Shown piece by piece: positions 2,903-19,093 of a DNA stretch of 32,000 nucleotides (the first letter of the stretch is position 1; every line of letters starts with the position of its first letter). This DNA is from Acholeplasma laidlawii PG-8A (GTDB lineage: Bacteria; Bacillota_I; Bacilli_A; Acholeplasmatales; Acholeplasmataceae): positions 1,380,001-1,412,000 of the forward strand of contig NC_010163.1 in the NCBI RefSeq assembly GCF_000018785.1, read 5' to 3'. Below the pieces are notes generated by a model, which worked only from the letters and a program-made list of their open reading frames with translations, had not been told where the DNA came from and ran no database searches. The translations under genes were made by a program, and so were the position numbers.

Positions 2903-3607
2903 ATGTTATTAGAAGTTAAAAAATTAAATAAATCCTTTAACCCAACAAAGGCTGTAAATGATGTCTCTTTTAGTTTATCTAAGGGTGAAATACTTAGTAT
3001 TATCGGTCCATCTGGTTCTGGTAAATCCACCTTATTAAAACTTATAGGCGGACTAGAAAGATTAGATAGTGGCGATATTTATATTAATAATATCCATATT
3101 GGTAGTGCCTCTAAAAAAGAAAAGAAAATAGCCCAAGAACATATTGGATTTATCTTCCAAGATTTCGCTCTTTTTGATCATTTATCTATAAAAGATAATA
3201 TAGGCTTAGCTTCTAAAGTTGTATATAAAAAGGATAAAACTTGGATAGATAGTGAAACAAATAGACTACTTTCATTATTTGGATTAAGTGATAAGCGCTT
3301 AAATTATCCACTTACCTTATCTGGTGGAGAAAAACAAAGGATTGCGATTGCACGCGCGCTTATTACAAAACCTTCTATACTTTTATTTGATGAACCTACA
3401 TCAGCGCTAGACCAAGCATCTATCGGTGATCTAGTAGCAATCATAAAAGATCTTAAAAAAGAAGACATTGGTATACTTATAGTTACTCATGACCTTAATT
3501 TCGCTAAACAAGTGTCTGATAGATTGCTTTTTATGCGAGATTCAAGTATCATTTTTAATAGGGACATGGTGGATGTAAAAGACATTCACACGGTCTTTGA
3601 CCTATAA
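2903..3607 (+). CDS. Amino-acid ABC transporter ATP-binding protein
   Basis: Walker A GPSGSGKST, signature LSGGEKQRIAIARAL, Walker B LLFDEPTSALD. The ORF track starts at 2843 inside the permease gene. ATG at 2903 (MLLEVKKLNKSF), 2 nt after the permease TGA, is the sensible start. Confidence 0.9.
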   Translation: MLLEVKKLNKSFNPTKAVNDVSFSLSKGEILSIIGPSGSGKSTLLKLIGGLERLDSGDIYINNIHIGSASKKEKKIAQEHIGFIFQDFALFDHLSIKDNIGLASKVVYKKDKTWIDSETNRLLSLFGLSDKRLNYPLTLSGGEKQRIAIARALITKPSILLFDEPTSALDQASIGDLVAIIKDLKKEDIGILIVTHDLNFAKQVSDRLLFMRDSSIIFNRDMVDVKDIHTVFDL

Positions 3608-3629
3608 TCTATTTAAAAAGGAGTCTTGT

Positions 3630-3914
3630 ATGTCTAAATTAAAAAGTGATGTAAATGATCTATTATTTGAAAGTATTTTAAAACTTGAAACATTAGAGGA
3701 TGCTTATGATTTTTTTGAGGATCTATTAACCATGAAAGAAATCGAAGCTATGTCACAAAGAATATTAGCTGCAAAACGCCTTATAGAAGGAAAAACTTAC
3801 GATCAAATCACAGAGGAAACTAAAATTAGTTCTACCACTCTAAGTAGAGTTTCTACTTGTGTCAGATATGGCACGGGTGGTTATAAAAAAGTTTTAAGTA
3901 AAACCTCTAAGTAA
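3630..3914 (+). CDS. YerC/YecD family TrpR-related DNA-binding protein
   Basis: MSKLKSDVNDLLFESILKLETLEDAYDFFEDLLTMKEIEAMSQRILAAKRLIEGKTYDQITEETKISSTTLSRVSTCVRYGTGGYKKV matches the conserved YerC/YecD pattern. AAGGAG lies 7 nt upstream of the ATG at 3630. The track start at 3597 overlaps the ATPase gene. Confidence 0.75.
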   Translation: MSKLKSDVNDLLFESILKLETLEDAYDFFEDLLTMKEIEAMSQRILAAKRLIEGKTYDQITEETKISSTTLSRVSTCVRYGTGGYKKVLSKTSK

Positions 3915-4893: not shown

Positions 4894-5821
4894 ACTTTTG
4901 TTTACTCTGATACATCATTTGATCTACTCTGTTGATTAGTTGATCTATAGTTTCCCCAGGTTTATACTGAGATACACCCATACTAAGGACTACATATCCA
5001 ACACTAGAGATTGGTGTTTTTTTAAATACATCTTGTATCCTACTAACAAGATTTAGGGCGTCTTTATATCGTGTATTTGGTAATACTAAGAAAAATTCAT
5101 CGCCACCATATCTAAACGTTATATCTGATTCTCTTTTTGATTTATTTATAAGCTGAATGGTTTCAATTAATACTTCATCCCCCACTAAGTGACCATAAGT
5201 ATCATTGATTTGTTTGAACTTGTCCACATCAAACATCAAGAGTGAAAAAGGTATATTTTTGTATGTATTCATATATATTTGATGTTCTAGTTCTTTAAAC
5301 AACATACGCCTGTTTAGTGCATCTGTCAAGGGATCACTTTGAGCATACTTAATAAGTTGTTCCTCTAATTTCTTAGACTCTGTAATATCAAAAACAATAC
5401 CCTCTAATTCAAGTGGTTTACCGTCTTTATCTCTTTTAGTAACAATGCCTCTATCATAGTACCAAAGATAATAGCCTTCACGGTGCATAATGCGGTACTC
5501 CACTTCATAGGCATCAGTTTTGCCGGTTAGATGTTGTCTCATATTATCCATCACACGATCATAATCATCTGGGTGCAATTTACTGGTGAAAAACTCAAAT
5601 CCGATTTGACCAATCTCTTCTGCTTCATAACCAATAGTACGTGCTTTAAGTGCATTAAAAAAAACTTTATTCTCAGCATAAAGCCATTTCCATTGACCTA
5701 AGTTACCAGCCCATTTAATATTTATACTTAGTTGATCTTCTTTTTGTTTGAGTGCTTTTTCTAAGGTCAAGATATAATCTATTAATTCTTGTTTCGTATA
5801 TGTTAGTAGTTTATTGTTCAT
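4892..5821 (-). CDS. PAS-domain diguanylate cyclase (GGDEF)
   Basis: N-terminal coiled region, PAS-like core (...YEVEYRIMHREGYYLWYYDRGIVTKRDKDGKPLELEGIVFDITE), then a GGDEF domain (DALNRR...FDVDKFKQINDTYGHLVGDEVL...RYGGDEFFLVL). Confidence 0.85.
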   Translation of the reverse strand: MNNKLLTYTKQELIDYILTLEKALKQKEDQLSINIKWAGNLGQWKWLYAENKVFFNALKARTIGYEAEEIGQIGFEFFTSKLHPDDYDRVMDNMRQHLTGKTDAYEVEYRIMHREGYYLWYYDRGIVTKRDKDGKPLELEGIVFDITESKKLEEQLIKYAQSDPLTDALNRRMLFKELEHQIYMNTYKNIPFSLLMFDVDKFKQINDTYGHLVGDEVLIETIQLINKSKRESDITFRYGGDEFFLVLPNTRYKDALNLVSRIQDVFKKTPISSVGYVVLSMGVSQYKPGETIDQLINRVDQMMYQSKQK

Positions 5822-5928: not shown

Positions 5929-7281
5929 TCACTTAAAAATCTTTCTAATAAGTTTTTCCTTAAACTTAGTATATGGTGGGTATATAATCGGTAAATCAAA
6001 CCATGTAGCTTTTTTTACATAACCTTTCGTGTGGGAAAATAGTTTAAAGGAATAGAATCCATGGTAAGCGCCTATACCACTCATGCCAATACCACCAAAC
6101 GGTAAGTATGGATTACTTACATGCATAATTGTATCATTGATAGCACCACCACCAAAAGTTAGGTTTTCAAATACATATGTTTGATTCTTTTTATCGTTTG
6201 AAAATAAATAAAGTGCTAGTGGTTTATCTTTTGTTTTTAGTAGTGAAACCAAATCTTTTAAGTTGGCATATTTAAGTACTGGAAGTATAGGACCAAAAAT
6301 CTCTTCTTGCATCACTTTATCATCCCATGTTACATCTATTAATACTGTCGGACTAATGAGTTTAGTTTCGGCCTCTACTGTAGGTTTTTGAATCATTTTC
6401 GTTTCATCTATTAGTCCAATTAGACGCTTATAATGTCTTTCATTAATGATACGTCCAAAATAATTCATATCACTGTATCTTGTGTTAATTACTTGATTTA
6501 GGATATTAATAAATTCATCATGAATGGTGTCATGTACATAAATATAGTCTGGTGCAATACATGTTTGACCTGCATTTAAAAACTTACCAAATAAAATCCT
6601 TTCGGCTGCTATTTTTAGGTTTGCTGTTTCATCGACTATGGTTGGACTTTTACCACCTAATTCTAATGTCACAGGTGTTAAATGTTTACTTGCTTTTTCA
6701 TAGACAATTTGACCTACACGACTACTTCCAGTAAAGAAGATATGATCAAACTTTGAATCTAATAACTTACTAGTCACTGTATAGTCACCTTCTATGACAT
6801 ATAGATAATCTTTATCAAAGTGATTGTTAACTAGTTTAACTAATATTTTCTCTGTATACGTTGCAAATTCAGATGGTTTAATCATCACTGTATTACCTGC
6901 AGCAATCGCTCCAATGAGTGGTTCTATTATTAGCTGAAATGGATAGTTGTAAGGACCAATAATTAAAATAGTACCCAGCGCATCATATGTGATATAAGAT
7001 GAAGTTGCAGATAAGTAATATGGGGTTTTAACCTTCTTAGGTTTCATCCATTTCTTTAAACCTTTAATTGTATGTGTTAATGACTTTAAAACATAACCCA
7101 CTTCTGTTGAATACGCTTCAAATCTAGACTTATGTAAATCTTTAAATAGTGCTTCTAAAATCTCATCTTGATAATTTATGATTAATTGTTTAAGTTTTTG
7201 TAACTGTCTTATACGAAACTCATAAGATAGCGTCTTACCACTTAAAAATAATGTTTTTTGTGATTGAACTATAGTCTCCAT
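5929..7281 (-). CDS. NAD(P)-dependent aldehyde dehydrogenase (ALDH3-like), full length
   Basis: 450 aa with ELGGKSP, catalytic-Cys motif GQTCIAPDY, EEIFGPILP and PFGGIGMSG. Confidence 0.9.
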   Translation of the reverse strand: METIVQSQKTLFLSGKTLSYEFRIRQLQKLKQLIINYQDEILEALFKDLHKSRFEAYSTEVGYVLKSLTHTIKGLKKWMKPKKVKTPYYLSATSSYITYDALGTILIIGPYNYPFQLIIEPLIGAIAAGNTVMIKPSEFATYTEKILVKLVNNHFDKDYLYVIEGDYTVTSKLLDSKFDHIFFTGSSRVGQIVYEKASKHLTPVTLELGGKSPTIVDETANLKIAAERILFGKFLNAGQTCIAPDYIYVHDTIHDEFINILNQVINTRYSDMNYFGRIINERHYKRLIGLIDETKMIQKPTVEAETKLISPTVLIDVTWDDKVMQEEIFGPILPVLKYANLKDLVSLLKTKDKPLALYLFSNDKKNQTYVFENLTFGGGAINDTIMHVSNPYLPFGGIGMSGIGAYHGFYSFKLFSHTKGYVKKATWFDLPIIYPPYTKFKEKLIRKIFK

Positions 7282-8377: not shown

Positions 8378-9059
8378 GAACTTTTCCCTTCATAAAAAGA
8401 CTTTACTAGACTTTTTATCTTCTTTTTTTGTATAAGTAACTACTTAAGTTATGAAAATCAAACTATAAGTTTTTATAAGATATTTTACATTCGGAAAGCA
8501 TTTTAACATGCCTAATTTATGAAATCAAGCGTAATGGTTTAAACAAGTATATAAAATATACTTTAATGTATTGTATGTAAAATTTCTTCTATTTGAATTG
8601 ACGCCTCTAAATTAGGCACAAGAGATAATCTAAAACAGATGCTGAATTTACGTTTTCTATATAACAAAATATTTTCACTAAATCTCAACTTATTTTGATT
8701 CCTTATCATACCACATGAAATCAATTACATAAGTTCGAGTTTCGAGGACTTTTTGAATATCTTATAAACCCTTTTAATTTTTTCCATCAAAGACAAAAAA
8801 ACCTACCACAAAATAAGCGCTTATTTATTAAGGCTGTATAAACCAAGAGATTAAAGATATACTGATGGCTCCGGATTATATATATATCATCAATGTTACT
8901 ATTATCATAAGCCTGAAAAAATAACTTGATTTATAATTCAAATACATACGTATATGAAGTTTATATGCATGTGTGTTTTTCTTACGTATAATTTACAGTT
9001 TTTGTTATATTTATATGATAAAATATAACGTATTTTAAAATTACCTATGGAGATAAGAC

Positions 9060-10330
9060 ATGAAAAGAATAGTTGTAGTTGGTACACAATGGGGCGATGA
9101 AGGTAAAGGTAAAATTACTGATTTTCTTGCTCAAAAGGCTGATGTTGTTACCAGATACCAAGGCGGAAATAATGCAGGTCATACAGTTGTTATAGGCCAT
9201 AAGAAATATGCACTGCATTTATTACCATCAGGTATATTGAATGCTGACAAAGTTAATATATTGGCTAATGGTATGGTTATTAATATCGAGGCACTGATTG
9301 CTGAATTAAAGAATCTAAATCATACAGATTATCAGTTGTTTATTTCTGATCGTGCACATGTAACATTTCCGTTTCATATCACTTTAGATAAACATGAGGA
9401 ATTCCTTAAAACAGAAAAGATTGGTACAACCAATAAGGGTATTGGACCAACCTACAAAGATAAAGCATCCCGTATTGGTATAAGGGTTGCTACACTTGTA
9501 TCAAATGAATTTGAATCAGAACTTAGAAAGTTAATTGATGAAAAAAATATAGACTTTAAAAACTACGGATTACCTTTAATAGATTTTGATTCAGTCTATA
9601 AAACATATCAAGCTTATGCAAATATTATTAAACCGCTTGTTAAAGATACTTCTCTTTTATTAAATGATTATATAGGATCAGGGAAAAACATTTTATTTGA
9701 AGGGGCCAAGGTACACTGCTTTGTTTAGATCATGGAACATATCCCTTTGTTACCTCATCATCACCAACAGCAGCCTCAGTACCATTAAATACCGGGGTTG
9801 CACCTTGGTTAATTGATGGTGCTATTGGTGTGACTAAGGCTTACTCAACCAGAGTAGGTGCCGGTGTCATGCCAACTGAAATATCAGGTGATATTGCCCA
9901 AAGTATACGTATCAAGGGTAACGAGTTTGGTACAACCACTGGAAGACCAAGACGTATTGGTTGGTTAGATTGTGTCGTTTTAAATTATACAAAACGTGTT
10001 TCTGGGTTATCTTATTTAGCAATTACTTTATTGGATGTCTTATCCGGTCTAGACACCATAAAGATTTGTACATCTTATACATTAGATGGCAAAGAAATAT
10101 TCACCATACCAGCACACATTAAAGACTATGAAAAATGTGTTGCAAACTATATTGAGCTACCTGGTTGGCATGAAGATATTACGGGTGTGAAATCATTTGA
10201 TGCTTTACCAGTTAACGCTCAAAATTATCTAAACAAAATTACAGAACTTACAAAAATACCATTAGCTATATTTTCAGTGGGTCCAAGGCGTGACCAAACA
10301 ATAGAAGTATCATCTATATTTGAGGATTAA
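9060..10330 (+). pseudogene. purA: Adenylosuccinate synthetase interrupted by a single-base frameshift
   Basis: ORF 9060-9728 encodes MKRIVVVGTQWGDEGKGKITD...GGNNAGHTV...ILFEGA, then runs out of frame (KVHCFV*). The next frame is open from 9701 and continues QGTLLCLDHGTYPFVTSSSPTA...GVTKAYSTRVGAG...GTTTGRPRRIGW to 10330. One C appears to be missing in GGGGCC(C)AAGG at 9702-9710. Confidence 0.85.
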
Positions 10331-10333
10331 TTT

Positions 10334-11626
10334 ATGATAAAAAGATATCGAACACCATTATTTGAAACTTTATGGAGTGATCAAAATCGCTATGACACTT
10401 TTTTGACAATTGAACTAGCTGTTGCCAAAGCGTGGTATTTATTAGGCAAATATGATGAAACAACTTACAATAAACTTACTAAAGCAACCTTTGATTTAGA
10501 ATCAATCTATGCATTAGAAATAGAAACAAAACATGATATGATTGCATTTACAAGAACTGTCTCTAAAAGTTTGGGTGCTGAGAAAATGTGGCTACACTAT
10601 GGTTTAACATCTACAGATGTTGTCGACAGTGCACTAGCACTTATACTCAGGCAAGCCAATCAAGCAATTAGATCAAAAATTAATAAGTTATTGTCAGTCT
10701 TAAAACAAAAAGCTTATACTTATAAAGACCAACCAACCATAGGTCGTACCCATGGCATCCACGCTGAAATTACATCTTTTGGATTAAAATTTGCACTATG
10801 GTACAGTGATCTAAAACGGCTACTTTCTGTATTTGATGCTGCCTGTAAAAACATCGAAGTGATTAAAATATCAGGCGCTGTTGGCAACTATGCGGCCAAC
10901 ACACCTCAACTAGAAAAAACAGTTTCCCGTCTATTAGATATAGCATCTGCAGACATTTCTACACAAGTACTTCAAAGAGACAGACATGCAAACTACATTT
11001 CAAGTATTGCACTATTGGGTAGTGAACTAGAAAAAATAGCCACTGAAATTAGACATTTATCACGTACTGAAGTATCTGAGGTAAATGAATACTTCAGTGT
11101 AGATCAAAAAGGTTCTAGTGCAATGCCACATAAAAAAAATCCGGTATCTAGTGAAAATATATCTGGATTATCTAGAGTCTTAAGAGGTTATGTTTTAACA
11201 GCTTTTGAAAATATTAATTTATGGCATGAAAGAGATATTTCCCACTCCTCTGCTGAGCGTATCATATTAGCAGATGCAACAACATTAATTGATTATATGT
11301 TAGATCGTATAACAAATACGCTATCTAACTTAGAGGTCCACGCATTAAAACTACAAAACAATATAGATATAACTGGTGGTATCGTATTTAGTCAACATGT
11401 ACTATCTTTATTGATTGATAAAGGACTTACAAGAGATCATGCGTATGATTTGGTTCAAAAGATTGCGACTGATGCCATGAGCAATCAAAAAGATTTTAAA
11501 ACAGAACTTTTAAAAAGTTCAGATATCATGAAGTTTATGACACCAGATGAACTGGATAAAGCGTTTGACTCAATCTATATATTAAGACATGTCGATACCA
11601 TATACTTAAAAGTCTTTAAAACATAA
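10334..11626 (+). CDS. purB: Adenylosuccinate lyase
   Basis: 430 aa with fumarate-lyase signature GSSAMPHKKNP and TSTDV; starts 4 nt after the purA stop. Confidence 0.95.
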   Translation: MIKRYRTPLFETLWSDQNRYDTFLTIELAVAKAWYLLGKYDETTYNKLTKATFDLESIYALEIETKHDMIAFTRTVSKSLGAEKMWLHYGLTSTDVVDSALALILRQANQAIRSKINKLLSVLKQKAYTYKDQPTIGRTHGIHAEITSFGLKFALWYSDLKRLLSVFDAACKNIEVIKISGAVGNYAANTPQLEKTVSRLLDIASADISTQVLQRDRHANYISSIALLGSELEKIATEIRHLSRTEVSEVNEYFSVDQKGSSAMPHKKNPVSSENISGLSRVLRGYVLTAFENINLWHERDISHSSAERIILADATTLIDYMLDRITNTLSNLEVHALKLQNNIDITGGIVFSQHVLSLLIDKGLTRDHAYDLVQKIATDAMSNQKDFKTELLKSSDIMKFMTPDELDKAFDSIYILRHVDTIYLKVFKT

Positions 11627-11627
11627 T

Positions 11628-11660
11628 AAAAGTCACATATCTATTTGATGTGTGACTTTT
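11628..11660. terminator. Bidirectional terminator between the convergent purB and ALDH paralogue
   Basis: About 14-bp stem AAAAGTCACATATC / GATGTGTGACTTTT with a 5-nt loop, immediately after the purB stop and 10 nt from the ALDH stop. Confidence 0.75.
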
Positions 11661-11669
11661 ATTATCCCT

Positions 11670-12965
11670 TTACTTTAGGATTTTTTTGATTATATTTTCT
11701 TTGGACTTTGTATATGGTGGATAGACCAGTGGTAAATATAACCATGTGCAGCGTTTTATATAGGATTTTTTATGCGAGAATATTTCAAATGAGGCAAAAT
11801 AATGATATGCACCCATCCCACTTTGACCAACACCGCCAAAGGGTAGGCAGGGATTACTCACATGCATGATAGTATCATTCATAGCTCCACCACCAAATGA
11901 TAATTGGCTAAAGACTTTATGCTGTATATCTTTATTATTTGTAAATACATAAAGTGCCAAAGGTTTTTCTTTAGTTTTTAACAGTTTAATTAGTGTATCG
12001 ATATCATCATAGATAAGTACTGGTAAAAGGGGCCCAAATATCTCTTCTTGCATGACTTTATCCGTCCAGGTTACACCCTTCATGATTGTAGGTGAAATTA
12101 AGCACATTTTGGCATCAATTACAGGTTTTTGAAGTACTTTATCTGCATCGATGAGATTCATTAATCGATCAAAATGTTTATCATTAATAATACGTCCAAA
12201 CTGATGTAAATCATTATACATGGTATGCATCGTATCTGATAAAATCTTTATAAATGATTCTGCAATCGTTTGATGTACATAAATATAATCTGGTGCAATA
12301 CATGTCTGTCCTGCATTTATAAATTTACCAAATATAATACGTTTGGCTGCAACTTTTAAATTGGCACTTTGATCAACAATCGTGGGACTTTTTCCACCCA
12401 GTTCTAATGTCACTGGTGTTAAATGCTTACTTGCTTGTTCATAAATGAGTTTTCCAACCCTTGTACTACCTGTGAAAAATATATGGTCAAATTTATTTTC
12501 AAGTAAATTTTCTGTTATCTTATGATCACCTGTTATAACATGTAGATAAGACGGCTCAAAGTGATCGTTTATTAAAGTTTGTAGTAACTGTTCTGTGTGG
12601 CTTGCATATTCAGAGGGTTTTATACTTGCAGTATTACCTGCTGCAATCGCACCAATAAGCGGTTCTAAGATTAATTGGAACGGATAATTATAAGGACCAA
12701 TAATCAATATCACACCTTTAGGTTCATATGCGATATAGGAAGTAGTTGGGCGTAAGTAAATGGGTGTTTTAACCCGTTTAGGCTTCATCCATTTTTTGAG
12801 TGACTTTATCGTTTTTGTAATACTTTTTAAAACATACCCGATTTCTGTTGAATAACTTTCAAAAGCACTTTTGTGTAAATCTTCATAAATACTCTTATCA
12901 TGATTCCGGTGTGTAGCCCCATATAACACGGTTGTCTGGATTAACCCAATCATCATGCCATCCAT
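11670..12965 (-). CDS. Aldehyde dehydrogenase paralogue, 5'-truncated (possibly a pseudogene or an N-terminally shortened protein)
   Basis: Collinear with 5929-7281 from ...IYEDLHKSAFESYSTEIGYVLKSI onward (ELGGKSP, GQTCIAPDY and PFGGVGQSG all present). The first roughly 20 codons of the track ORF (MDGMMIGLIQTTVLYGATH) have no counterpart in the paralogue and overlap the 3' end of the upstream lipoprotein gene. About 40 N-terminal residues of the family are missing. Confidence 0.75.
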   Translation of the reverse strand: MDGMMIGLIQTTVLYGATHRNHDKSIYEDLHKSAFESYSTEIGYVLKSITKTIKSLKKWMKPKRVKTPIYLRPTTSYIAYEPKGVILIIGPYNYPFQLILEPLIGAIAAGNTASIKPSEYASHTEQLLQTLINDHFEPSYLHVITGDHKITENLLENKFDHIFFTGSTRVGKLIYEQASKHLTPVTLELGGKSPTIVDQSANLKVAAKRIIFGKFINAGQTCIAPDYIYVHQTIAESFIKILSDTMHTMYNDLHQFGRIINDKHFDRLMNLIDADKVLQKPVIDAKMCLISPTIMKGVTWTDKVMQEEIFGPLLPVLIYDDIDTLIKLLKTKEKPLALYVFTNNKDIQHKVFSQLSFGGGAMNDTIMHVSNPCLPFGGVGQSGMGAYHYFASFEIFSHKKSYIKRCTWLYLPLVYPPYTKSKENIIKKILK

Positions 12966-13938
12966 CTGGTTTTTCTAATACTTCTGCTTGAATTCTATTA
13001 AGCCTTGTCACATAAAATGCATTCGGCCCAATGGTGTGAACACTCAATGGAATCGTGATAGAATAAAATGTAGATCCATAAAATGCACTTGCTTCAATAA
13101 CTTTAAGCATGCTATTTGCTTCAAATACAATATGATTAATAGACGCACTAAAAAAACTTGATTTCCCAATAGATTCGATTGTGTTTGGAATTGTTAACAA
13201 ATCAATATTGGCGAAATGAAAGGCATACTTATAAATTTCAGTCACAGGTTTATCATCAATTGTTTTTTGTATAACAACCTTTGCCCTATTTGCTTGCCCA
13301 ATATATTTTGCAAGTATAACTTTTTGGCTTTTTACTAAATAAATAATATTATCTTTTAAAATTGCTTTGGTACCGTTTGATAATAGATGTTTGATATTTT
13401 GATATGTATACTTTTTATCGTATGTCTCAATATCTAGGACTGAAGAATCTGTCATCTGATGTCTTAAATTTGTTTCTAATTCATCAATAGCATTTCTATT
13501 AGCTAATAGTGCGTATTTTGTGTACTCATTAAAATCAATTTCACCTTGTATCAATTCTAAATTGCTGTTTTCTGCAAACTTTGCATGCTCATTAAATATG
13601 TATTCATGCCATCGATAAGTATAGTGTTGTGGTACTTTAGATGCGCCTTTAAACGTAATAATCGCATGAAGTACATATTTAGTAGCTTCATCACCATTAT
13701 AATATCTTGTTTGCTCATCACCTATATCTTTTAGATAGTAAGCGTGACCAAAAATATGAATATCTTTGATCATTTCAGATGCCTCGACATTTTGAACAGT
13801 TGAGTCTATCAAATAGTTATCCCAAAATAAATCTAAAATTGATTGATTATCTATTTCTAGTTTACTTATCGTTGTTGTGCAACCAAAGAGTAATGATAGA
13901 CTAACTATACTTAAAAAAATTAGTTGTATATGCTTCAT
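12898..13938 (-). CDS. Surface lipoprotein with C-terminal BspA-type leucine-rich repeats
   Basis: Signal peptide plus lipobox (MKHIQLIFLSIVSLSLLFGC). The C-terminal third carries repeated units of the type I.IP.ti.sIg..aF: IDLLTIPNTIESIGKSSFFSASINHIVFEANSMLKVIEASAFYGSTFYSITIPLSVHTIGPNAFY. Ends ...KPDGWHDDWVNPDNRVIWGY. Confidence 0.65.
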   Translation of the reverse strand: MKHIQLIFLSIVSLSLLFGCTTTISKLEIDNQSILDLFWDNYLIDSTVQNVEASEMIKDIHIFGHAYYLKDIGDEQTRYYNGDEATKYVLHAIITFKGASKVPQHYTYRWHEYIFNEHAKFAENSNLELIQGEIDFNEYTKYALLANRNAIDELETNLRHQMTDSSVLDIETYDKKYTYQNIKHLLSNGTKAILKDNIIYLVKSQKVILAKYIGQANRAKVVIQKTIDDKPVTEIYKYAFHFANIDLLTIPNTIESIGKSSFFSASINHIVFEANSMLKVIEASAFYGSTFYSITIPLSVHTIGPNAFYVTRLNRIQAEVLEKPDGWHDDWVNPDNRVIWGYTPES

Positions 13939-14148
13939 AATATATGCCCTCTTTTATATTTTTTTTGATGTTTGTATTATTTATATATTTTAATCATATC
14001 ACATGTGTGATGTTTTTGATCGGTACTTCATAATCCAATAGTTTTTATATAATGAAAGAATATAAAGTCTTAATACGTCATTTATCGGTCTCATATTTTA
14101 AAGACATAATATTTAACTAATCATTTAAAACACTTCGTCGATACAACC

Positions 14149-14292
14149 CTAAAAGTGCAATGATTTTTTTATTACCTTTATCACAATTATCTTTGCAAGG
14201 TTTGGATCAAACTGTTTTTCTGCACATTCAATAATTTCTTTAACTGCTTCTTTTTTTGATTGTTACACTCGATAGATTCTTGAAGTTGTCAT
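14149..14292 (-). pseudogene. C-terminal remnant of an HD / HD-GYP-type phosphohydrolase gene with an in-frame stop
   Basis: Own minus-strand translation gives ...LD*EVMTTSRIYRV*QSKKEAVKEIIECAEKQFDPNLAKIIVIKVIKK. It resembles the ...AD.fdAmTs.R.YR.a.s.eeA..el....G.qFDP..v..f tail of HD-GYP/HD-domain proteins. There is no upstream HD core, and the frame is broken by TAA codons. Confidence 0.4.
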
Positions 14293-14336
14293 CACCTCTT
14301 AATCCAGCAAATAATCTAAAGGATCACTTTTTATAT

Positions 14337-14401
14337 AAAAAACTCTTCCCATACGTGAGAAGAGTATTTCATTAATTAATGGTGACCCGTAGGGGTTCAC
14401 G
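14337..14401 (-). repeat. Direct repeat copy A: degenerate 3' end of tRNA-Glu (about 22 nt) plus a copy of its terminator
   Basis: 14355-14371 and 14373-14391 are identical to 16662-16678 and 16680-16698 (offset 2307 bp). Hairpin CTCTTCTC/GGGAAGAG (14343-14364) followed by T6 on the minus strand. The tRNA-like part reads CGTGAACCCCTACGGGTCACCA on the minus strand. Confidence 0.85.
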
Positions 14402-14470
14402 TTTTTTTCAGTGACTATCAGTTCAGACTGGCATGAAGATCAATATTTCAGGTATCGTTTTGGTAACCCT

Positions 14471-15226
14471 TTATATTTTTTTGCTGCCAGGGTAATCAAT
14501 AATTAAAACAATTTCTTCAATAACTTGTCTTAAATCAGATTTCAAATGATCTAGATCGCTTTTCTTCGCTAAAAAACGCCTGTTATGCGCACTTAAATCT
14601 CCATATTTTTTTATTTGCATAATATTATTCTTTAAATTTCTACTATTGTTCCAAAATTTCGAATTAATAAACACTGGAATTAAATCGCTCAAGTATTTAA
14701 AGTTACCATTGTCATCCTTTATAAGATTATCACACTTGAATTTTTCAAATGTCTCAATAATTAAAGTCTCCAAGATTTTTCTTATTATAACAAGAGTAGC
14801 ATCAAATAATCCGCTATCATAGCATTGATTCATTTGTTCAGCTATTTTTTTTATATAATATGGAGTTCCGTTAAAAATTTCCATTGATATTAAATTATTA
14901 GTAACTGGTACTTCTTTTATTATAGATAGCTTCTGACGTATATTTTCGATTGCATTTCTGTGCAAATAATAGCCATTTGTTTTTTTTCCGAAAGTTGCGT
15001 TTCTGCCTTTACTATTTTTCCCCAAATAATCGGGAATATTTGAATAAGGCTTTATAAGGAGAGTTTCATAGCATTCTAAAATATTCTTTGCCGTGAAATA
15101 TGACTGCTCAAGTTCAATCAATAAAAAATACGAAAAATATTTGATTAATTTGCTTGATTGTAAATGATTAATGTCGGGAATTTTTGATGAAAACAATTCT
15201 AGCTTATCTTTCAACTTTGTCACCAT
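14471..15226 (-). CDS. Hypothetical protein: N-terminal winged-helix-like module plus C-terminal DUF4145/HEPN-like helical domain
   Basis: 251-aa ORF whose ATG overlaps the upstream gene by 23 nt. The C-terminal half (...LFDATLVIIRKILETLIIETFEKF...NNIMQIKKYGDLSAHNRRF...) fits the a..m.Rk.lE.l ... iR..GN.aaH pattern I associate with DUF4145. No closer family recognised. Confidence 0.55.
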   Translation of the reverse strand: MVTKLKDKLELFSSKIPDINHLQSSKLIKYFSYFLLIELEQSYFTAKNILECYETLLIKPYSNIPDYLGKNSKGRNATFGKKTNGYYLHRNAIENIRQKLSIIKEVPVTNNLISMEIFNGTPYYIKKIAEQMNQCYDSGLFDATLVIIRKILETLIIETFEKFKCDNLIKDDNGNFKYLSDLIPVFINSKFWNNSRNLKNNIMQIKKYGDLSAHNRRFLAKKSDLDHLKSDLRQVIEEIVLIIDYPGSKKI

Positions 15227-16139
15227 TTATTATAAGATTTCTTTTGATATAATCTTCTCCCATATAATTAATTTTATAATATGATTTTTTATTTGATGAT
15301 AACAAAAAATTCATTTTATGTTTTGCATTTGTGAGTGCTGAAACGATATTAAATGATATATTTTCATCTAAAATTCTTAATAAAGTGAAAATTTCATCTT
15401 TACCCATTTCATCTATTTTTTTGTGTTCTTTCATCCAATTAAAAAGTAGTATAATTTTATCGAGAGTTTTGTCATGCTTGTATGTTCCCCAATATGTTCT
15501 TAAATTTATTCTATCCTCCTCGTTCAAATTCAACTCCACTATATTATAAGAGGTTATAGCTGTTTTAGATTTCTTGTCACCTTTATTTTTTTTGATCTTT
15601 TCACGAGTGTTATAAATTATGCTTTTAGCTTCTTCGAGTCCCAAAGTTGTTATTTTGTAATCTGAATTATTAATAGCTTGAATAAACTTAGAAGTCACAA
15701 GTTTTGCTATATTGGTTTTAAAATTGCCCATGCGATTTGATGTGCTTCTTTTAGATTCATCGTATTTCAATTTCAAATCTTGTTCTGTAAATAATTTCTG
15801 TCCATTATCAGAACTATATAGCGCATACACTAATAGCCATTCTTTTTCAGATCTCGGATTCCCCTCTAAAACTATATTACCTAAAAACGGTAATTCAGTA
15901 TTTTCTATAACTGCTTGTGATTGGTCGGTTTCCTCATTCATTTGTGCGCTAACTAAAGACTCTTTACTGTCTAATATCCTATTGTTACCTATCATGTTAT
16001 GATTATCTACTTTTTTTGACATTAGAGATCCCAAACCATCTTCTTTTAATTCTTGAAAAATTGTTCTAACAATCTCGCCTTCCCCATCCAATTCAATTTC
16101 AATCTCGCCGATTCTAACTTTCAATCTTAACTGACTCAT
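15204..16139 (-). CDS. Hypothetical protein with a short N-terminal domain, an acidic/polar linker and two winged-helix-like modules
   Basis: 311-aa ORF with GAGGGG 5 nt upstream of the ATG at 16139. N-terminus MSQLRLKVRIGEIEIELDGEGEIV. The segments EKEWLLVYALY..LFTEQDLKLKY...NRMGNFKTNIAKLV..KFIQAINNSDYKITTLG and ILLFNWM...GKDEIFTLL...NIVSALTNAKHK.NFLLSSNKKSYYKINYMG look like wHTH units. No family recognised. Confidence 0.55.
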   Translation of the reverse strand: MSQLRLKVRIGEIEIELDGEGEIVRTIFQELKEDGLGSLMSKKVDNHNMIGNNRILDSKESLVSAQMNEETDQSQAVIENTELPFLGNIVLEGNPRSEKEWLLVYALYSSDNGQKLFTEQDLKLKYDESKRSTSNRMGNFKTNIAKLVTSKFIQAINNSDYKITTLGLEEAKSIIYNTREKIKKNKGDKKSKTAITSYNIVELNLNEEDRINLRTYWGTYKHDKTLDKIILLFNWMKEHKKIDEMGKDEIFTLLRILDENISFNIVSALTNAKHKMNFLLSSNKKSYYKINYMGEDYIKRNLIINGDKVER

Positions 16140-16168
16140 ATTTTCCCCTCATATTCTAATGTATTGTT

Positions 16169-16200
16169 TATGCATAATACTCAAAATAGTAATATGCATA
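16169..16200. promoter_or_regulatory. Pair of palindromic boxes TATGCATA upstream of the island operon (candidate operator)
   Basis: TATGCATA at 16169-16176 (extends to the 10-bp palindrome TTATGCATAA) and at 16193-16200. Centres are 24 bp apart, 30-60 bp upstream of the start codon at 16139. Confidence 0.3.
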
Positions 16201-16641
16201 CATAACTATCTTTTATTATATATAATTTAATCTGTTTTGTAAAATAAATCAAAGTTAGTTATAACCATGTAGTCTCAAAAGTTTCGTGTGAATTGAATTA
16301 GTTAAGATATTAAGACCTCTCATTTGTATCTCTAAAGTTTTTAATTGTCTGAATAAAAGCTCATTACATTCCATTAAATTGATATGATGATCTTATGGAA
16401 TTTCACAATTCATATGGTTTGAGGAACGCACATTTCAAAATCACTCAAAACTTATATCAAAATAAGTTGCTTTTTTCGCAAAATTTTGAAACCTATAATA
16501 TATCTTCAAGAATTGCTTTAATTTTTGTTTATGTACACATAAGTTTTAGGAGGTTTTCTAAGTTTGAATGAACTCTGACAAATTCAGTTTTTTCAACTTA
16601 GAACATCTGTTAATGAGTTTAAAACTCTACATAAATGTCTA

Positions 16642-16671
16642 GAAAAAAAACCTTCCCACGGGTGAGAAGAG
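16642..16671 (-). terminator. Rho-independent terminator of the tRNA-Ser/tRNA-Glu transcription unit (within repeat copy B)
   Basis: Minus strand reads CTTCTCAC-CC-GTGGGAAG followed by T8, about 16 nt past the tRNA-Glu CCA end. Confidence 0.75.
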
Positions 16672-16705
16672 TATTTCAATAATTAATGGTGACCCGTACG
16701 GGATT
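16645..16705 (-). repeat. Direct repeat copy B: intact tRNA-Glu 3' end plus terminator
   Basis: Partner of 14337-14401, with identical 17-nt and 19-nt runs separated by one mismatch. Confidence 0.85.
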
Positions 16706-16762
16706 CGAACCCGTGAATGCATGCGTGAAAGGCATGTGAGTTAACCGTTTCTCCAACGGGCC
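16687..16762 (-). tRNA. tRNA-Glu (anticodon UUC), CCA encoded
   Basis: Minus strand reads GGCCCGTTGGAGAAACGGTTAACTCACATGCCTTTCACGCATGCATTCACGGGTTCGAATCCCGTACGGGTCACCA. It folds by hand into a cloverleaf: 7-bp acceptor stem, anticodon loop CTTTCAC, T-loop TTCGAAT. Very close to Bacillus-type tRNA-Glu. Confidence 0.95.
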
Positions 16763-16764
16763 AA

Positions 16765-16855
16765 TGGCGGAGCGAGAGGGATTTGAACCCTCGCACGGGG
16801 TTAACCGTCTAACGCGTTAGCAGTGCGCCCTCTTCGGCCTCTTGAGTATCGCTCC
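16765..16855 (-). tRNA. tRNA-Ser (anticodon GCU), class II with long variable arm, CCA encoded
   Basis: Minus strand reads GGAGCGATACTCAAGAGGCCGAAGAGGGCGCACTGCTAACGCGTTAGACGGTTAACCCCGTGCGAGGGTTCAAATCCCTCTCGCTCCGCCA. Acceptor GGAGCGA/TCGCTCC, anticodon loop CTGCTAA, T-arm GAGGG-TTCAAAT-CCCTC. Confidence 0.9.
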
Positions 16856-16918: not shown

Positions 16919-19093
16919 CTAATTTGATGTATTTACCATGGTTAGCCCTACTTGACCTTTATCACGGTCAATATTGAGTACCCAGACAGTTACAATTTGC
17001 CCAACTGATACAACATCTTTGGGATGTTTCACAAATTTATTAGACAATTTAGAGATATGAACAAGTCCATCATTTTTAAGTCCTACGTCAACAAAAGCAC
17101 CAAAGTCTGTTACGTTTCTTACAGTACCTTCTAATTCCATACCTACCTTTAAGTCTTCAATAGATAATACATCAGATTTTAAGATTGGTTGAGCATAGTC
17201 ATCACGTGGATCTCTCATAGGTGCAACAAATGCATCTAGTATAAGATCTAGTGTATATTTATCGGTATGCAGTTCACGAGCTACTTGTTCTCTATCGATG
17301 TTATCTGTCCATAGTCTAATACTTGGTTTCCCAATATCTTCAGAACTGATATTTAATTTCTTCATCACTTCTCTTGCTAGTTGATAACTTTCAGGGTGAA
17401 TAGATGTTTGGTCTAAGATTTCATCAGATTCTGGTATTCTTAAGAAACCAACTGCTTGTTCATAAGTTTTAGGTCCAAGACTTGGTACTTTTAATAAATC
17501 TTCACGAGATTTAAAACCACCAATTTTATTTCTGTAGTTGACTAAGTTTTCAGCAACATTTTTGCTTAAACCAGATACATAGGTTAGTAAAGATTTACTT
17601 GCAGTATTCGCGTTCACACCCACTTGGTTTACAACTTGTGTAACAACAAAGTTTAGAGAATCATCTAGCTTTTTAGGTGCAATATCGTGTTGGTATTGAC
17701 CAACACCGATAGATTTTGGATCTATTTTAACAAGTTCAGATAGCGGATCTTGTAGTCTTCTTGCAATACTTGCAGCAGAACGCTCTTCCACTGAAAAATC
17801 AGGGAATTCTTCACGTGCAACATCACTTGCAGAATATACAGATGCACCTGCTTCATTGACGATAACGTATTTAGCATCCATATTTTGGTTCTTTATGACT
17901 TCAACAACAAACCTTTCGGTCTCTCTTGAAGCTGTACCATTACCGATTGCTACTAATTCAAACTTATATTTTTTGTATAAAACTTTTAATTGAAGTTCAG
18001 CTTGGAATACCTTTTCAGGATCTGGTCTACCACCTTGAGTTGTCTCATGTGGATAAATGACACCTTTTTCAAGTACTTGTCCAGTTTGATCAACAACAGT
18101 CCATTTACAACCTGTTCTAAATGCAGGGTCAATACCTAGAATCACTTTACCTTTTAAAGGTGGTTGTAATAATAGTTTAGATAAGTTGTCTGCAAAGACT
18201 TCAATCGCTTGTTCTTGACCTTTTTCAGAGAGTTCTGAGCGAATTTCTCTTTCAATCGAAGGAAAGATTAAACGTTTAAGTGAATCTTTAATTGCTTCTT
18301 CTAAATACATATCTGCATTAGATGGTTTTTTGATCACTTGTTTGATTAGATAGTTTTCCATGGCTTCTTTAGTACCATCTAATTTTACTGTGATAACTTT
18401 TTCATCTTCAGCACGGTTAATCGCTAAAATTTGATGTGGTTTAATTTTAGTAATCGATTGACTATAGTCATAGTAAATCTCATACACACCCTTTACATCT
18501 AATTCTTTACCATTTTTTCTTAAATTAGATACTAATACACCATGTCTAAATAAGTAATCTCTTAAATATTTACGATAGTTTGCATCATCACTAATAAGTT
18601 CTGAAATAATGAATCCAGCACCTTCAAGTGCATCTTTGGTAGTTAATACTTCATCATTAAGATATTTTTTTGCTTCTTCTACTACATCCGTTTTTGGAAA
18701 TGTTAATAAGAATTTTGCAAGTGGTTCTAAACCTTTTGCAATTGCTTCTGTTGCTTTAGTCTTTTTCTTTTCTTTGTATGGTCTGTAAAGGTCTTCAACT
18801 TCCACGAGTTTAGTAGCACTTAAGATTTCATTCTTAAGTTCTTCAGTTAACATACCTTTTTCATCAATTAAACGGATAACATCTTCTTTACGTTTAAATA
18901 GGTTATTCGCATACTCAAACATTTGGTTAATTGCAAATATCTGTTCTTCATCCATACCACCAGTCATTTCCTTACGGTATCTAGCGATAAATGGAATGGT
19001 TGCACCATCTGCTAAAAGTTCAAGTACAACTTTAACTTTAGCTGTTGGTAATTTGAGTTCTTTTGATACACTCATTACTAATTGTTCGTTCAT
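16919..19093 (-). CDS. tex: Tex-like transcription accessory protein (YqgF/HhH/S1 domains)
   Basis: 724 aa with N-terminal ...ATIPFIARYRKE.TGG, a central RuvC/YqgF-like region (GIDPAFRTGCK) and a C-terminal S1 domain (GTVRNVTDFGAFVDVG...DGLVHISKLS). Confidence 0.95.
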   Translation of the reverse strand: MNEQLVMSVSKELKLPTAKVKVVLELLADGATIPFIARYRKEMTGGMDEEQIFAINQMFEYANNLFKRKEDVIRLIDEKGMLTEELKNEILSATKLVEVEDLYRPYKEKKKTKATEAIAKGLEPLAKFLLTFPKTDVVEEAKKYLNDEVLTTKDALEGAGFIISELISDDANYRKYLRDYLFRHGVLVSNLRKNGKELDVKGVYEIYYDYSQSITKIKPHQILAINRAEDEKVITVKLDGTKEAMENYLIKQVIKKPSNADMYLEEAIKDSLKRLIFPSIEREIRSELSEKGQEQAIEVFADNLSKLLLQPPLKGKVILGIDPAFRTGCKWTVVDQTGQVLEKGVIYPHETTQGGRPDPEKVFQAELQLKVLYKKYKFELVAIGNGTASRETERFVVEVIKNQNMDAKYVIVNEAGASVYSASDVAREEFPDFSVEERSAASIARRLQDPLSELVKIDPKSIGVGQYQHDIAPKKLDDSLNFVVTQVVNQVGVNANTASKSLLTYVSGLSKNVAENLVNYRNKIGGFKSREDLLKVPSLGPKTYEQAVGFLRIPESDEILDQTSIHPESYQLAREVMKKLNISSEDIGKPSIRLWTDNIDREQVARELHTDKYTLDLILDAFVAPMRDPRDDYAQPILKSDVLSIEDLKVGMELEGTVRNVTDFGAFVDVGLKNDGLVHISKLSNKFVKHPKDVVSVGQIVTVWVLNIDRDKGQVGLTMVNTSN

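Follow-up and report, generated by a model that had tools for sequence, protein, structure and literature searches.

A recombinase-less 2.3-kb insert at the 3' end of tRNA-Glu(TTC) in Acholeplasma laidlawii PG-8A: a probable non-autonomous integrative element with defence-like cargo

CIMEs (cis-mobilizable elements) of the ICESt1/ICESt3-type islands of Streptococcus thermophilus, like other att-flanked islets devoid of an integrase, are bordered by attL/attR-type repeats at the 3' end of a conserved gene, have no recombination or transfer genes of their own, accrete at one site and depend on a helper recombinase. They are understood as deletion derivatives of known ICEs, with which they have att sites in common, and the helper ICE is known. 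In the window, by which we mean the whole 32-kb stretch of Acholeplasma laidlawii PG-8A DNA that was analysed, an insert at the 3' end of tRNA-Glu(TTC) resembles these elements: it is flanked by att-like repeats, is devoid of recombination and transfer genes and is stacked with other elements at one site, and its movement would be expected only with a helper recombinase. Unlike for the CIMEs, a related autonomous element with the same att and arms was not found; the target is a tRNA gene, and the host a Mollicute, without a cell wall; and at least two members with both arms in common carry unrelated cargo, which suggests a cassette system more than a one-off deletion product.

Classical tRNA islands and prophages (P4-type, tyrosine-integrase and L2-like elements) also use the 3' end of a tRNA gene, with the tRNA regenerated by an element-borne 3' copy, and the direct repeat, the empty site in relatives and the hybrid attB are likewise features in common with the window element. 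They differ from it in size (10-100 kb versus 2.3 kb) and in that no integrase lies next to att in the window; L2 has no tRNA-Glu core. Integron cassettes are likewise small, consist of one or two genes without a recombinase, and have a hairpin-bearing distal recombination site of about 60 nt; they stack in arrays at one site, carry variable and often defence or toxin cargo, and are moved in trans. However, no IntI, attI or Pc was found near the window element, its repeat is a tRNA end plus a Rho-independent terminator rather than attC, and its cassette has a promoter-like site of its own. By this comparison the likeness to integrons would be functional only.

The repeat pair and the empty site

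ARAGORN and Rfam identified a pair of tRNA genes downstream of tex on the minus strand, where the repeats, open reading frames, arms, promoter-like site, flank and older terminator remnant described below also lie. The first is tRNA-Ser(GCT) (16765-16855), directly followed by an intact tRNA-Glu(TTC) (16687-16762). An earlier note on this DNA had reported that the 3' end of tRNA-Glu and its terminator are duplicated 2307 bp away, and the repeat finder recovered this duplication as a direct repeat of 59 nt, identical at 52 of 59 positions (88%), at 14337-14395 and 16644-16702, with a start-to-start spacing of 2307. The repeat unit consists of the final 16 nt of tRNA-Glu(TTC) and the tRNA-Glu terminator. 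Both of the identical runs described in that note were found again, one of 19 nt (TACGGGTCACCATTAATTA) and a second of 17 nt, and the 17-mer TGAAATACTCTTCTCAC is exact in both copies. A 20-nt core, CTACGGGTCACCATTAATTA, occurs at two sites only in the 32 kb with up to 3 mismatches allowed (0.00 expected, 100 shuffles).

Copy B (16644-16702) is attL-like and holds the tRNA-Glu 3' end, whose 16 nt begin the repeat, a spacer and terminator B; its left part is host-type, and its loop and 3' stem (CCCGTGGGAAGG-T8) are element-type. Copy A (14337-14395) is attR-like and holds a 16-nt mimic of the tRNA-Glu 3' end (CCCCTACGGGTCACCA), a spacer and the chromosomal terminator A. As in site-specific tRNA elements, the tRNA 3' end is thus present in both flanking repeats, with the intact tRNA on one side. 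A foldable, terminator-like hairpin followed by a T run is present in both copies, as had been claimed (A, -15.5 kcal/mol, z = -5.9; B, -8.9 kcal/mol, z = -1.3, then T8), and by alignment the two terminators are variants of one ancestral Acholeplasma tRNA-Glu terminator.

All PG-8A-type A. laidlawii assemblies carry the insert, with identical repeats. The earlier note had proposed that relatives be searched for an empty site, and such a site, with tRNA-Glu, one terminator and then the flank beyond copy A, was found in two related sequences independent of each other. One, L035, is a contig of 3.8 kb from the assembly of A. granularum ATCC 19168, and at this locus its identity to A. laidlawii is about 98%; the other, L179, is a contig from a metagenome. 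Exactly 14396-16644 is missing from both, and both flanks match at about 98%; the alignment of L179 covers 12879-14395 of the window at 97.6% and continues at 16645-16785. The polymorphism is a clean one, with the insert either present or absent. As in site-specific tRNA elements, the relatives have a single hybrid att copy, whose left part (CCCG, ATTATTG) is of the copy B type and whose right part (CACGTATGGGAAGAG-T6-ATATAAAAAGTG) is of the copy A type. This pattern supports the reading of the L035/L179 site as the attB predicted by a reciprocal attP x attB exchange, for which the window would hold attL and attR. The hybrid pattern fits either direction: L035 and L179 may have been cured of an insert rather than never occupied.

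Copy B, in its loop and 3' stem, and the DNA after it resemble the terminator and flank of a distant MAG, L030, and not terminator A; the tRNA-proximal terminator therefore arrived with the insert. A target-site duplication in the window was rejected on the same match to the L030-type terminator. Among the public contigs that bear ORF1 of the insert (n = 14), all of at least 20 kb and, where listed, all chromosomal, neither an excised circle nor an attP junction was seen.

Arms, flanks and cargo of the insert

The repeats bracket ORF1, ORF2 and 504 nt of non-coding DNA (16140-16643), and the unique part of the insert is 14396-16643. This agrees with the earlier description of an insert with two ORFs, about 500 nt of non-coding DNA and no recombinase: Pfam, PHROGs, PADLOC and NCBIfam gave no recombinase in the insert, and none was found in the 32-kb window. 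Besides ORF1, ORF2 and short ones on the opposite strand, the insert has no ORFs of at least 50 aa. Its GC content is 24-32%, versus 33-36% for tex. Distant-mode blastn searches of phage and plasmid collections with the insert returned only tRNA matches, and the 504-nt stretch showed no similarity to protein families, phages or plasmids.

Much of the non-coding stretch is a conserved tRNA-proximal arm (P' arm, 16381-16634), delimited by blastn, alignments, nhmmer and a motif search. This arm of about 250 nt has two A/T-rich palindromes, ACTTAT-N6-ATAAGT at 16450-16467 and a related one at about 16527-16544, and its homologues lie 3' of tRNA-Glu in L030 and in the metagenomic element L172, and after IS66 in strain 8195 (L001). 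A structured RNA in the arm was rejected: there is no Rfam match, the folding is not significant (z = -0.5), and no covariation is seen because the palindrome arms are invariant. The first 40 nt or so also resemble the A. oculi chromosomal flank, so that the proximal arm may derive from the chromosome, by capture or by ancestry. The palindromes were also considered as dif/Xer (IMEX) sites, and this was dropped because their arms are unlike dif half-sites and the target is a tRNA gene. Between the arm and ORF1 there is a promoter-like site, TTTACA-17-TATAAT (16215-16243), a consensus match at 11 of 12 positions about 75 nt upstream of ORF1. The distal arm (P arm, 14392-14470) begins directly after the ORF2 stop and runs from GGTTACCAAAA to CGTGAACCCC; it aligns in register with the distal arm of L172, with 43 of 80 positions identical, which 0 of 20,000 shuffles reach.

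Beyond the insert, the chromosomal flank 13939-14336 is non-coding in the window and contiguous with tRNA-Glu in L035 and L179. An HD-family gene had been placed there in the earlier note and could not be confirmed: the flank has no ORF of at least 50 aa, and a 37-aa peptide read from it has no Pfam match. A 361-aa gene in L176 was rejected as the origin of this putative HD fragment. The first intact gene beyond the flank encodes a BspA-type LRR lipoprotein (12898-13938). The neighbours in the window include tex, acpS, whiA and others as well as purA/purB, aldh and LRR_5; purA is present as two ORFs in the window versus intact in L035. Farther away, the 3' half of a strain-8195-type tRNA-Glu terminator (term0, 8785-8814) is the remnant of an older layer, is joined to the purA island via an ATTTTGT microhomology, and marks the place where backbone homology with strains 8195 and L171 resumes.

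The cargo consists of ORF1 (311 aa, 15204-16139) and ORF2 (251 aa, 14471-15226), which overlap by 23 nt. Neither has a match at threshold in Pfam or NCBIfam, and PADLOC assigned 0 families to them. In the AF2 model, ORF1 has a small N-terminal beta/alpha domain, a disordered linker and two winged-helix domains, belongs to no known family and has only winged-helix matches in Foldseek. The model of ORF2 (pLDDT 90.8) has an N-terminal winged-helix domain and, C-terminally, a HEPN-like (DUF4145-like) helical domain in which the motif GDLSAHNR is invariant. Its best Foldseek matches were Csm6 (probability 0.99, E = 0.03) and the HEPN structures 2hsb (TM 0.72 on the target) and 2q00, none at E <= 0.001, and a profile search against PDB sequences gave no match. 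Against Pfam DUF4145 (PF13643), ORF2 scored 14.0 bits (E = 0.054), below the gathering cut-off of 23.1; "DUF4145 domain-containing protein" is the name that one source gives to the ORF2 cluster. The folds found in the insert are winged-helix and HEPN-like only, and either ORF as a novel recombinase was rejected on these models.

DUF4145 is a HEPN family that often occurs in defence contexts (PMC3710099; PMC13017515), and the HEPN catalytic motif is R-x4-6-H (PMC13017515). ORF2 resembles the HEPN/DUF4145 proteins (such as RAZR, AbiJ-like, HepT, Csm6) in its HEPN-like C-terminal fold and weak DUF4145 match, and the pair in its defence-island-like neighbourhoods. However, the family-invariant motif of ORF2, K206-K207-Y-G-D-L-S-A-H214-N-R-R, is K-x6-H, with lysine in place of arginine, and its partner is the tandem winged-helix ORF1 and not an MNT or zinc finger protein. 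Listeria (43% and 53% identity), an Acholeplasma-like MAG, Zobellia and others share the conserved ORF1-ORF2 pair, and its neighbours there include type I R-M, AAA_21/RloB with Fic, an integrase/LXG island and the Listeria guaA hotspot. Judged from fold and gene neighbourhood only, the pair is most likely a toxin-like RNase (ORF2) with a DNA- or trigger-binding partner (ORF1) that would act in phage defence or addiction.

Sister elements and the search for a helper recombinase

A sister element, L172, has the same architecture at the same tRNA-Glu nucleotide, with a spacing of 2352 bp versus 2307 bp in the window. Its proximal arm matches that of the window by blastn (E = 2e-8). L172 has no integrase either, and its cargo bears no relation to that of the window (BLASTP E = 0.16). 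The window and L172 show the CIME-like combination of common ends and different cargo, and the proximal arm extends this to L030 and L001. The L030 relative may exceed 2 kb, its contig ending there. The comparison of the tRNA-Glu element family covered four members. In the window, in L172, in A. oculi and in strain 8195, the partial tRNA copy has essentially one and the same starting point in the tRNA. The last two have a related cassette flanked by repeats, both copies of which carry the host's own terminator. An IS66-mediated origin was rejected for the window, which has no IS66; it would apply at most to strain 8195, which carries one.

No recombinase was found in any known family member. 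The earlier note had suggested looking for the same repeat beside an integrase-bearing element, and none turned up: the loci downstream of tRNA-Glu in about 14 lineages, the phage and plasmid collections and the viral contigs gave no integrase-bearing relative with the same arms or att. In the viral contigs, scans for the proximal-arm motif, the core plus terminator and the distal-arm end each gave 0 matches; the tRNA-Glu core by itself matched at least 120 times, being too generic, and none of these is BLAST-similar to the locus. Phage L2 was rejected as a helper, as it has no tRNA-Glu core within 2 mismatches, and its integrase has no relatives in the viral contigs except L2 itself. L2-like plasmavirus prophages have been reported to integrate into Acholeplasma tRNA genes (PMC12662186), and therefore tRNA-targeting integrases exist in Acholeplasma. 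Searches of the literature for A. laidlawii mobile elements turned up no work specific to the tRNA-Glu locus.

Origin and meaning of the insert

We consider it rather probable that the insert at the tRNA-Glu(TTC) 3' end of PG-8A-type A. laidlawii is a small integrative element, non-autonomous and moved in trans, that carries defence-like cargo. The att of the element would mimic the final 16-22 nt of tRNA-Glu, the spacer and the terminator. A single reciprocal crossover with the chromosomal copy, placed between position 65 of the tRNA and the loop of the terminator and most simply within the common 17-mer TGAAATACTCTTCTCAC, would have rebuilt an intact tRNA-Glu, now with the element-borne terminator (copy B), and would have shifted the original terminator (copy A) 2.3 kb downstream. 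There it would now end the two-gene operon that the cargo is predicted to form with its own promoter-like site; that the displaced terminator ends the cassette, as the earlier note had suggested, is plausible, as its hairpin is strong and lies about 100 nt beyond the stop codon of ORF2. As no recombinase accompanies the conserved arms, insertion and excision would depend on an enzyme acting in trans, probably the tRNA-targeting tyrosine integrase of another element. The interpretation of the tRNA 3' repeat as an integration scar (attL/attR) gains support from the empty sites, the hybrid att and the missing tRNA 5' half (see below). The host-type terminators in both repeat copies of strain 8195 and A. 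oculi are not predicted by an attP x attB model with a fixed crossover. For a crossover within the 12 nt of tRNA, where L172 requires it, the A/T difference in ATTA[T/A]TG would have to be a SNP between strains.

Of the three origins listed in the earlier note, mobilisation in trans is favoured over a decayed island because the sister L172 has the same two arms, a similar size, unrelated cargo and no integrase. It is unlikely that the insert is what remains of a larger tRNA-integrating island or prophage, once autonomous, from which an internal deletion took the integrase and left attL, two cargo genes and attR. Integrase loss from islands is common, and decay and deletion are seen elsewhere at the locus: purA is split, and the deletion junction at the ATTTTGT microhomology took part of the older terminator. 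The possible length of the L030 relative, over 2 kb, would also fit. Against such a remnant, two independent deletions at the same arm boundaries are unlikely, and these would be needed for the window and L172; the distal arm begins right at the stop of ORF2, and the conserved arm and the promoter region account for the 504 nt of non-coding DNA.

We also find it improbable that no dedicated recombinase was involved and that the repeat is a by-product of RecA-dependent exchange of diverged alleles between strains or species at a tRNA-Ser/tRNA-Glu hotspot, by Campbell-type insertion of a circle or by double crossover via the conserved tRNA genes and homologous terminators. In its favour are the two stretches of identity, of 19 and 17 nt, the common ancestry of the two terminators, the host-type terminators in strain 8195 and A. 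oculi, the content after tRNA-Glu, which differs in every lineage, and the failure to find an integrase anywhere. In addition, the L035 contig has tRNA-Ser at both ends and a second, diverged tex 3' fragment, as expected of a Campbell insertion through about 170 nt of tRNA homology. However, in L172 the two repeat copies have only 12-14 nt of the tRNA end in common, too little for RecA to recombine efficiently, and differ immediately beyond CCA; the partial tRNA copy has essentially the same start in the window, L172, A. oculi and strain 8195. The distal arm beside this copy is inherited and not made anew, and a double crossover makes no duplicated tRNA 3' end.

Tandem duplication of the tRNA-Glu gene, with copy A as its relic and the 2.3 kb arriving separately, is hardly credible: tRNA genes are sometimes tandemly duplicated and the repeat includes the terminator, as a gene duplication would, but no trace of a tRNA 5' half or of tRNA-Ser was found upstream of copy A (local alignment score 7 versus 7.8 +/- 1.3 in 1000 shuffles), the DNA there is homologous to the L172 distal arm, and the empty sites lose exactly one repeat unit plus the insert.

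For the non-autonomous element that we favour, a wider and more tentative proposal, which we would put forward as a possibility rather than an expectation, is that the Acholeplasmataceae harbour a family of recombinase-less "tRNA-Glu cassettes" of about 2.3 kb. These would have the proximal arm of about 250 nt with its two ACTTAT-N6-ATAAGT palindromes, a distal arm of about 80 nt ending in the tRNA-Glu 3' mimic, and interchangeable cargo including the HEPN-like two-gene module, and would be inserted, stacked and excised by a trans-acting recombinase, as a tRNA-anchored functional analogue of integron cassettes or MITEs.

tRNA islands are normally defined by their integrase. Here, the occupied and empty alleles, the mapped exchange interval and the inferred attP are all available at the sequence level for an inserted unit that is tiny, has conserved ends and no recombinase, and has a sister unit with the same ends and other genes. 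The ORF1-ORF2 pair is a widespread, unnamed two-gene module in defence-island contexts (Listeria, Bacteroidota and others) and may reasonably be considered a candidate new defence or addiction system. Should there be no helper, the locus would simply be a tRNA hotspot of the usual kind, hypervariable through recombination. Should a trans-acting enzyme be found, the locus would represent cassette-style gene shuffling at a tRNA gene in Mollicutes, and would offer a small, natural attP/attB pair for the engineering of Acholeplasma, a genus with few genetic tools.

Repeat copies and empty sites at tRNA-Glu

The Tex protein (724 aa, 16919-19093, minus strand) is identical in 15 public A. laidlawii contigs, including the complete genome LS483439.1, and is 96% identical in strain 8195, the species representative; in all these A. 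laidlawii sequences tex is followed by tRNA-Ser(GCT) and tRNA-Glu(TTC). The earlier note had proposed that the 3' end of tRNA-Glu and its terminator are duplicated 2307 bp apart, and this was borne out. A repeat finder returned one direct repeat of 59 nt (88% identical) at 14337-14395 (copy A) and 16644-16702 (copy B), with a spacing of 2307 bp, and the 20-nt repeat core was found at just two sites in the 32 kb with up to 3 mismatches, where none were expected. Copy B is made up of the last 16 nt of the intact tRNA-Glu, then a spacer, then a terminator; copy A is built alike but has no tRNA body, and the 17-mer TGAAATACTCTTCTCAC is exact in both. Hairpins were detected in both copies by a terminator scan, a strong one in copy A (-15.5 kcal/mol, z = -5.9) and a weaker one in copy B (-8.9 kcal/mol), after which T8 comes next. 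Between the copies lie ORF1 (311 aa), ORF2 (251 aa, with a 23-nt overlap with ORF1) and 504 nt of non-coding DNA, and the GC content of this insert is 24-32% versus 33-36% in tex. The locus was otherwise as first described, except that the downstream gene assigned to the HD family was not confirmed.

Empty-site variants, which the earlier note had suggested seeking in relatives, were found in two sequences that are independent of each other and lack precisely the bracketed DNA. In L035, a 3.8-kb contig of the A. granularum ATCC 19168 assembly, a match to window 16645-16832 (97.9%) runs straight into one to 14395-13934 (97.8%). L179, a metagenome contig that also has the LRR_5 lipoprotein gene, aligns first with 12879-14395 (97.6%), next with 16645-16785. 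Copies A and B differ at seven positions, and at these positions the single copy of L035 and L179 is B-like on its left side (CCCG, ATTATTG) and A-like on its right side (CACGTATGGGAAGAG-T6-ATATAAAAAGTG). As a sequence pattern this hybrid fits an attB, from which attP x attB would give attL (copy B) and attR (copy A); it would equally fit the product of excision by recombination between copies A and B. The predicted attP would join the left part of copy A to the right part of copy B (...GTGAACCCCTACGGGTCACCATTAATTAATGAAATACTCTTCTCACCCGTGGGAAGG-T8-CTAGAC...), and the circle junction of the insert would read ...GTGAACCCCTACGGGTCACCATTAATTA[A/T]TGAAATACTCTTCTCACCCGTGGGAAGG-T8-CTAGAC. The exchange interval would lie between tRNA position 65 and the loop of the terminator, shrinking to the 17-mer should the A/T difference be informative. 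On its right side, copy B, like the DNA after it, is similar to L030, a distant Acholeplasmataceae MAG (terminator CACCCGTGGGAAGGG and flank), and not to copy A; the tRNA-proximal terminator therefore arrived with the insert.

Conserved arms and stacked units after tRNA-Glu

Nine loci were obtained when metagenome contigs were scanned with the tRNA-Ser/tRNA-Glu junction. One of them, L172, carries a sister element with a repeat spacing of 2352 bp, in which tRNA-Glu and its own terminator are followed by a proximal arm, a 48-aa ORF, a 399-aa ORF and a distal arm; the two ORFs have no relation to ORF1 or ORF2. The non-coding arm of L172 is homologous to window 16428-16547 (E = 2e-8), with the shared block ...ACTTAT-N6-ATAAGTTTT.... 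This conserved arm covers 16381-16634 in the window, 176-438 in L172, 13297-13538 in L030, where it is directly 3' of tRNA-Glu (E = 2e-11), and 15029-15230 in the strain 8195 sequence (L001), where it is placed after an inserted IS66. No Rfam family was matched and its folding was not significant. Within it, two A/T-rich palindromes, whose arms are conserved and whose 6-nt spacers vary, are putative protein-binding sites. The arm weakly matches itself on the opposite strand (nhmmer E = 3e-4), because two ACTTAT-N6-ATAAGT-type palindromes lie about 80 nt apart. The distal arm ends in ...TTCGTGAACCAGTACGGGTCACCA in L172 versus ...AACGTGAACCCCTACGGGTCACCA in the window, and the 80 nt preceding the partial tRNA are identical in register at 43 of 80 positions, a score reached by 0 of 20,000 shuffles and by no other 80-mer of the window. 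Past CCA, the distal copy of L172 has a different, host-type terminator, and its two repeat copies have just the tRNA end in common. No recombinase gene was found in these family units except the IS66 transposase of 8195, and this IS66 inserted secondarily, with inverted repeats of its own.

The site is a hotspot with stacked units, and other cassettes occupy it too. The bare backbone is represented by L171, with tRNA-Glu, a different terminator (term0) and a Na/Ca exchanger gene. Strain 8195 has an independent bracket, in which a perfect 55-nt repeat (L001 12396-12450 and 15993-16047), made of the last 12 nt of the tRNA and term0, encloses 3.6 kb. This stretch holds an IS66-family unit and the arm, together with a DUF1905 gene and the N-terminal fragment of a photolyase, and no integrase was found within it. 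In A. oculi a 54-nt repeat (93% identical; L006 12444-12497 and 13295-13348) surrounds an 851-bp version of this cassette with an IS66-end remnant, the photolyase fragment and DUF1905, and the matching empty site is present in L173, a metagenomic relative. The cassettes of 8195 and A. oculi are 88-94% identical versus about 75% for their backbones, and in each species both repeat copies have the host's own terminator.

In the window, 8785-8814 is the surviving 3' half of a term0 of the 8195 type. Here the backbone homology resumes and the homology to the purA-purB block of L035 ends, and a 7-nt microhomology, ATTTTGT, joins the remnant to the purA-side island. The junction appears to stem from a deletion that took away an older duplicated tRNA and terminator. 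The window therefore has at least three layers: innermost the term0 remnant, then the purA'-purB-aldh-LRR_5 block ending in terminator A, and newest the 2.3-kb unit at the tRNA.

Within the middle block, the adenylosuccinate synthetase gene purA is broken into two ORFs at 9060-9728 and 9830-10330 (Pfam positions 1-218 and 260-416) and is probably a pseudogene in the strain of the window; L035 and L176 each have an uninterrupted gene of 423 aa. L035 has neither of the genes at 11646-13933, which encode an aldehyde dehydrogenase and a BspA-type LRR lipoprotein, and runs from the terminator A flank straight to purB. The aldh ORF has a 68-nt overlap with the LRR_5 ORF and a diverged paralogue at 5929-7281. 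Both ends of L035 (NZ_JAFR01000004.1) are inside tRNA-Ser; the contig holds tRNA-Glu, purB, purA (about 98.8% identical to the window) and the truncated 3' end of a second tex (3457-3657), 85% identical to A. granularum tex and 88% to the window tex. L035 looks like a duplication with the tRNA pair at its borders, either tandem or of the Campbell type, or else like DNA of an A. laidlawii-like strain that came in by horizontal transfer or as a contaminant.

The cargo pair

More than 170 homologues of ORF2 were found at about 50% identity, and 26 of ORF1 by profile (Listeria, an Enterococcus-like genome, Zobellia and metagenomes). The two remain adjacent and overlapping across genomes, next to a type I R-M system in one context, to AAA_21/RloB and Fic near smpB in another, and also in an integrase/LXG island. 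In many L. monocytogenes genomes (L046-L049, genes at about 9080-10747) the pair lies in a variable region 3' of guaA, with proteins 43% (ORF1) and 53% (ORF2) identical to those of the window. Its flanks there are small unknown ORFs and HTH proteins, with no tRNA close by.

The AlphaFold model of ORF2 (pLDDT 90.8) begins with a winged helix and ends with a helical domain, for which the top structural matches are Csm6 and further HEPN proteins (probability 0.99, though with E = 0.03). Its sole Pfam match, below threshold, is DUF4145, a HEPN family frequent in defence contexts (PMC3710099; PMC13017515), and the invariant motif of the ORF2 family, KKYGDLSAHNR, has a lysine at the HEPN arginine position. 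In the AlphaFold model of ORF1 (pLDDT 75), a small N-terminal domain is connected by a disordered linker to two winged helices. No PADLOC or NCBIfam model matched either protein. With winged-helix and HEPN-like folds, a role of ORF1 or ORF2 as recombinase was rejected; fold and gene context suggest that the pair most likely forms a module for defence or addiction.

Mobility of the unit

The att-like repeats, the empty alleles, the element-derived proximal terminator and the inherited conserved arms show that the insert is a discrete unit. Its entry and exit would be reciprocal exchanges at the 3' end of tRNA-Glu, carried out by an enzyme acting in trans, and we consider such a trans-mobilised cassette moderately probable. 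The partial tRNA copy begins at the same place in four lineages, which favours a site-specific enzyme, and tRNA-integrating L2-like prophages exist in Acholeplasma (PMC12662186), which we count on the same side. Against it, the host-type terminators in both repeat copies of 8195 and A. oculi are unexplained by a fixed-crossover attP x attB model. Also counted against it, a helper recombinase element was found neither in phage and plasmid collections nor in viral contigs or phage L2, and no excised circle was found among public contigs carrying ORF1. Phage L2 (L050, NC_001447) has at about 5385-5430 a segment, TGGTGCACAATACAAGGATTGAACTTGTGACCCCCTGCACG, resembling the reverse complement of a tRNA 3' half, some 350 nt away from the putative attP of the annotation (5029-5053); by this resemblance it may be the true L2 attP.

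Homologous recombination is a live alternative for the origin of the insert, although the L172 copies have too little homology for efficient RecA recombination, a point in favour of the site-specific enzyme. Decay of a larger island is live as well. A target-site duplication is excluded, the proximal terminator being insert-borne, as is a decayed tandem tRNA-Glu gene, the relic that the earlier note had named as a refutation: no tRNA 5'-half residue was found upstream of copy A.

As a trans-mobilised cassette the insert would be functionally similar to CIMEs and, more loosely, to integron cassettes. A classical tRNA island is defined by its own integrase and an integron by IntI plus attI; the insert lacks these hallmarks and does not qualify as either. 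Integrase-less att-flanked islets are already known, and the insert therefore counts as a new variant of that kind. More unusual is the conserved arm pair around interchangeable cargo, a pattern drawn from four members so far.
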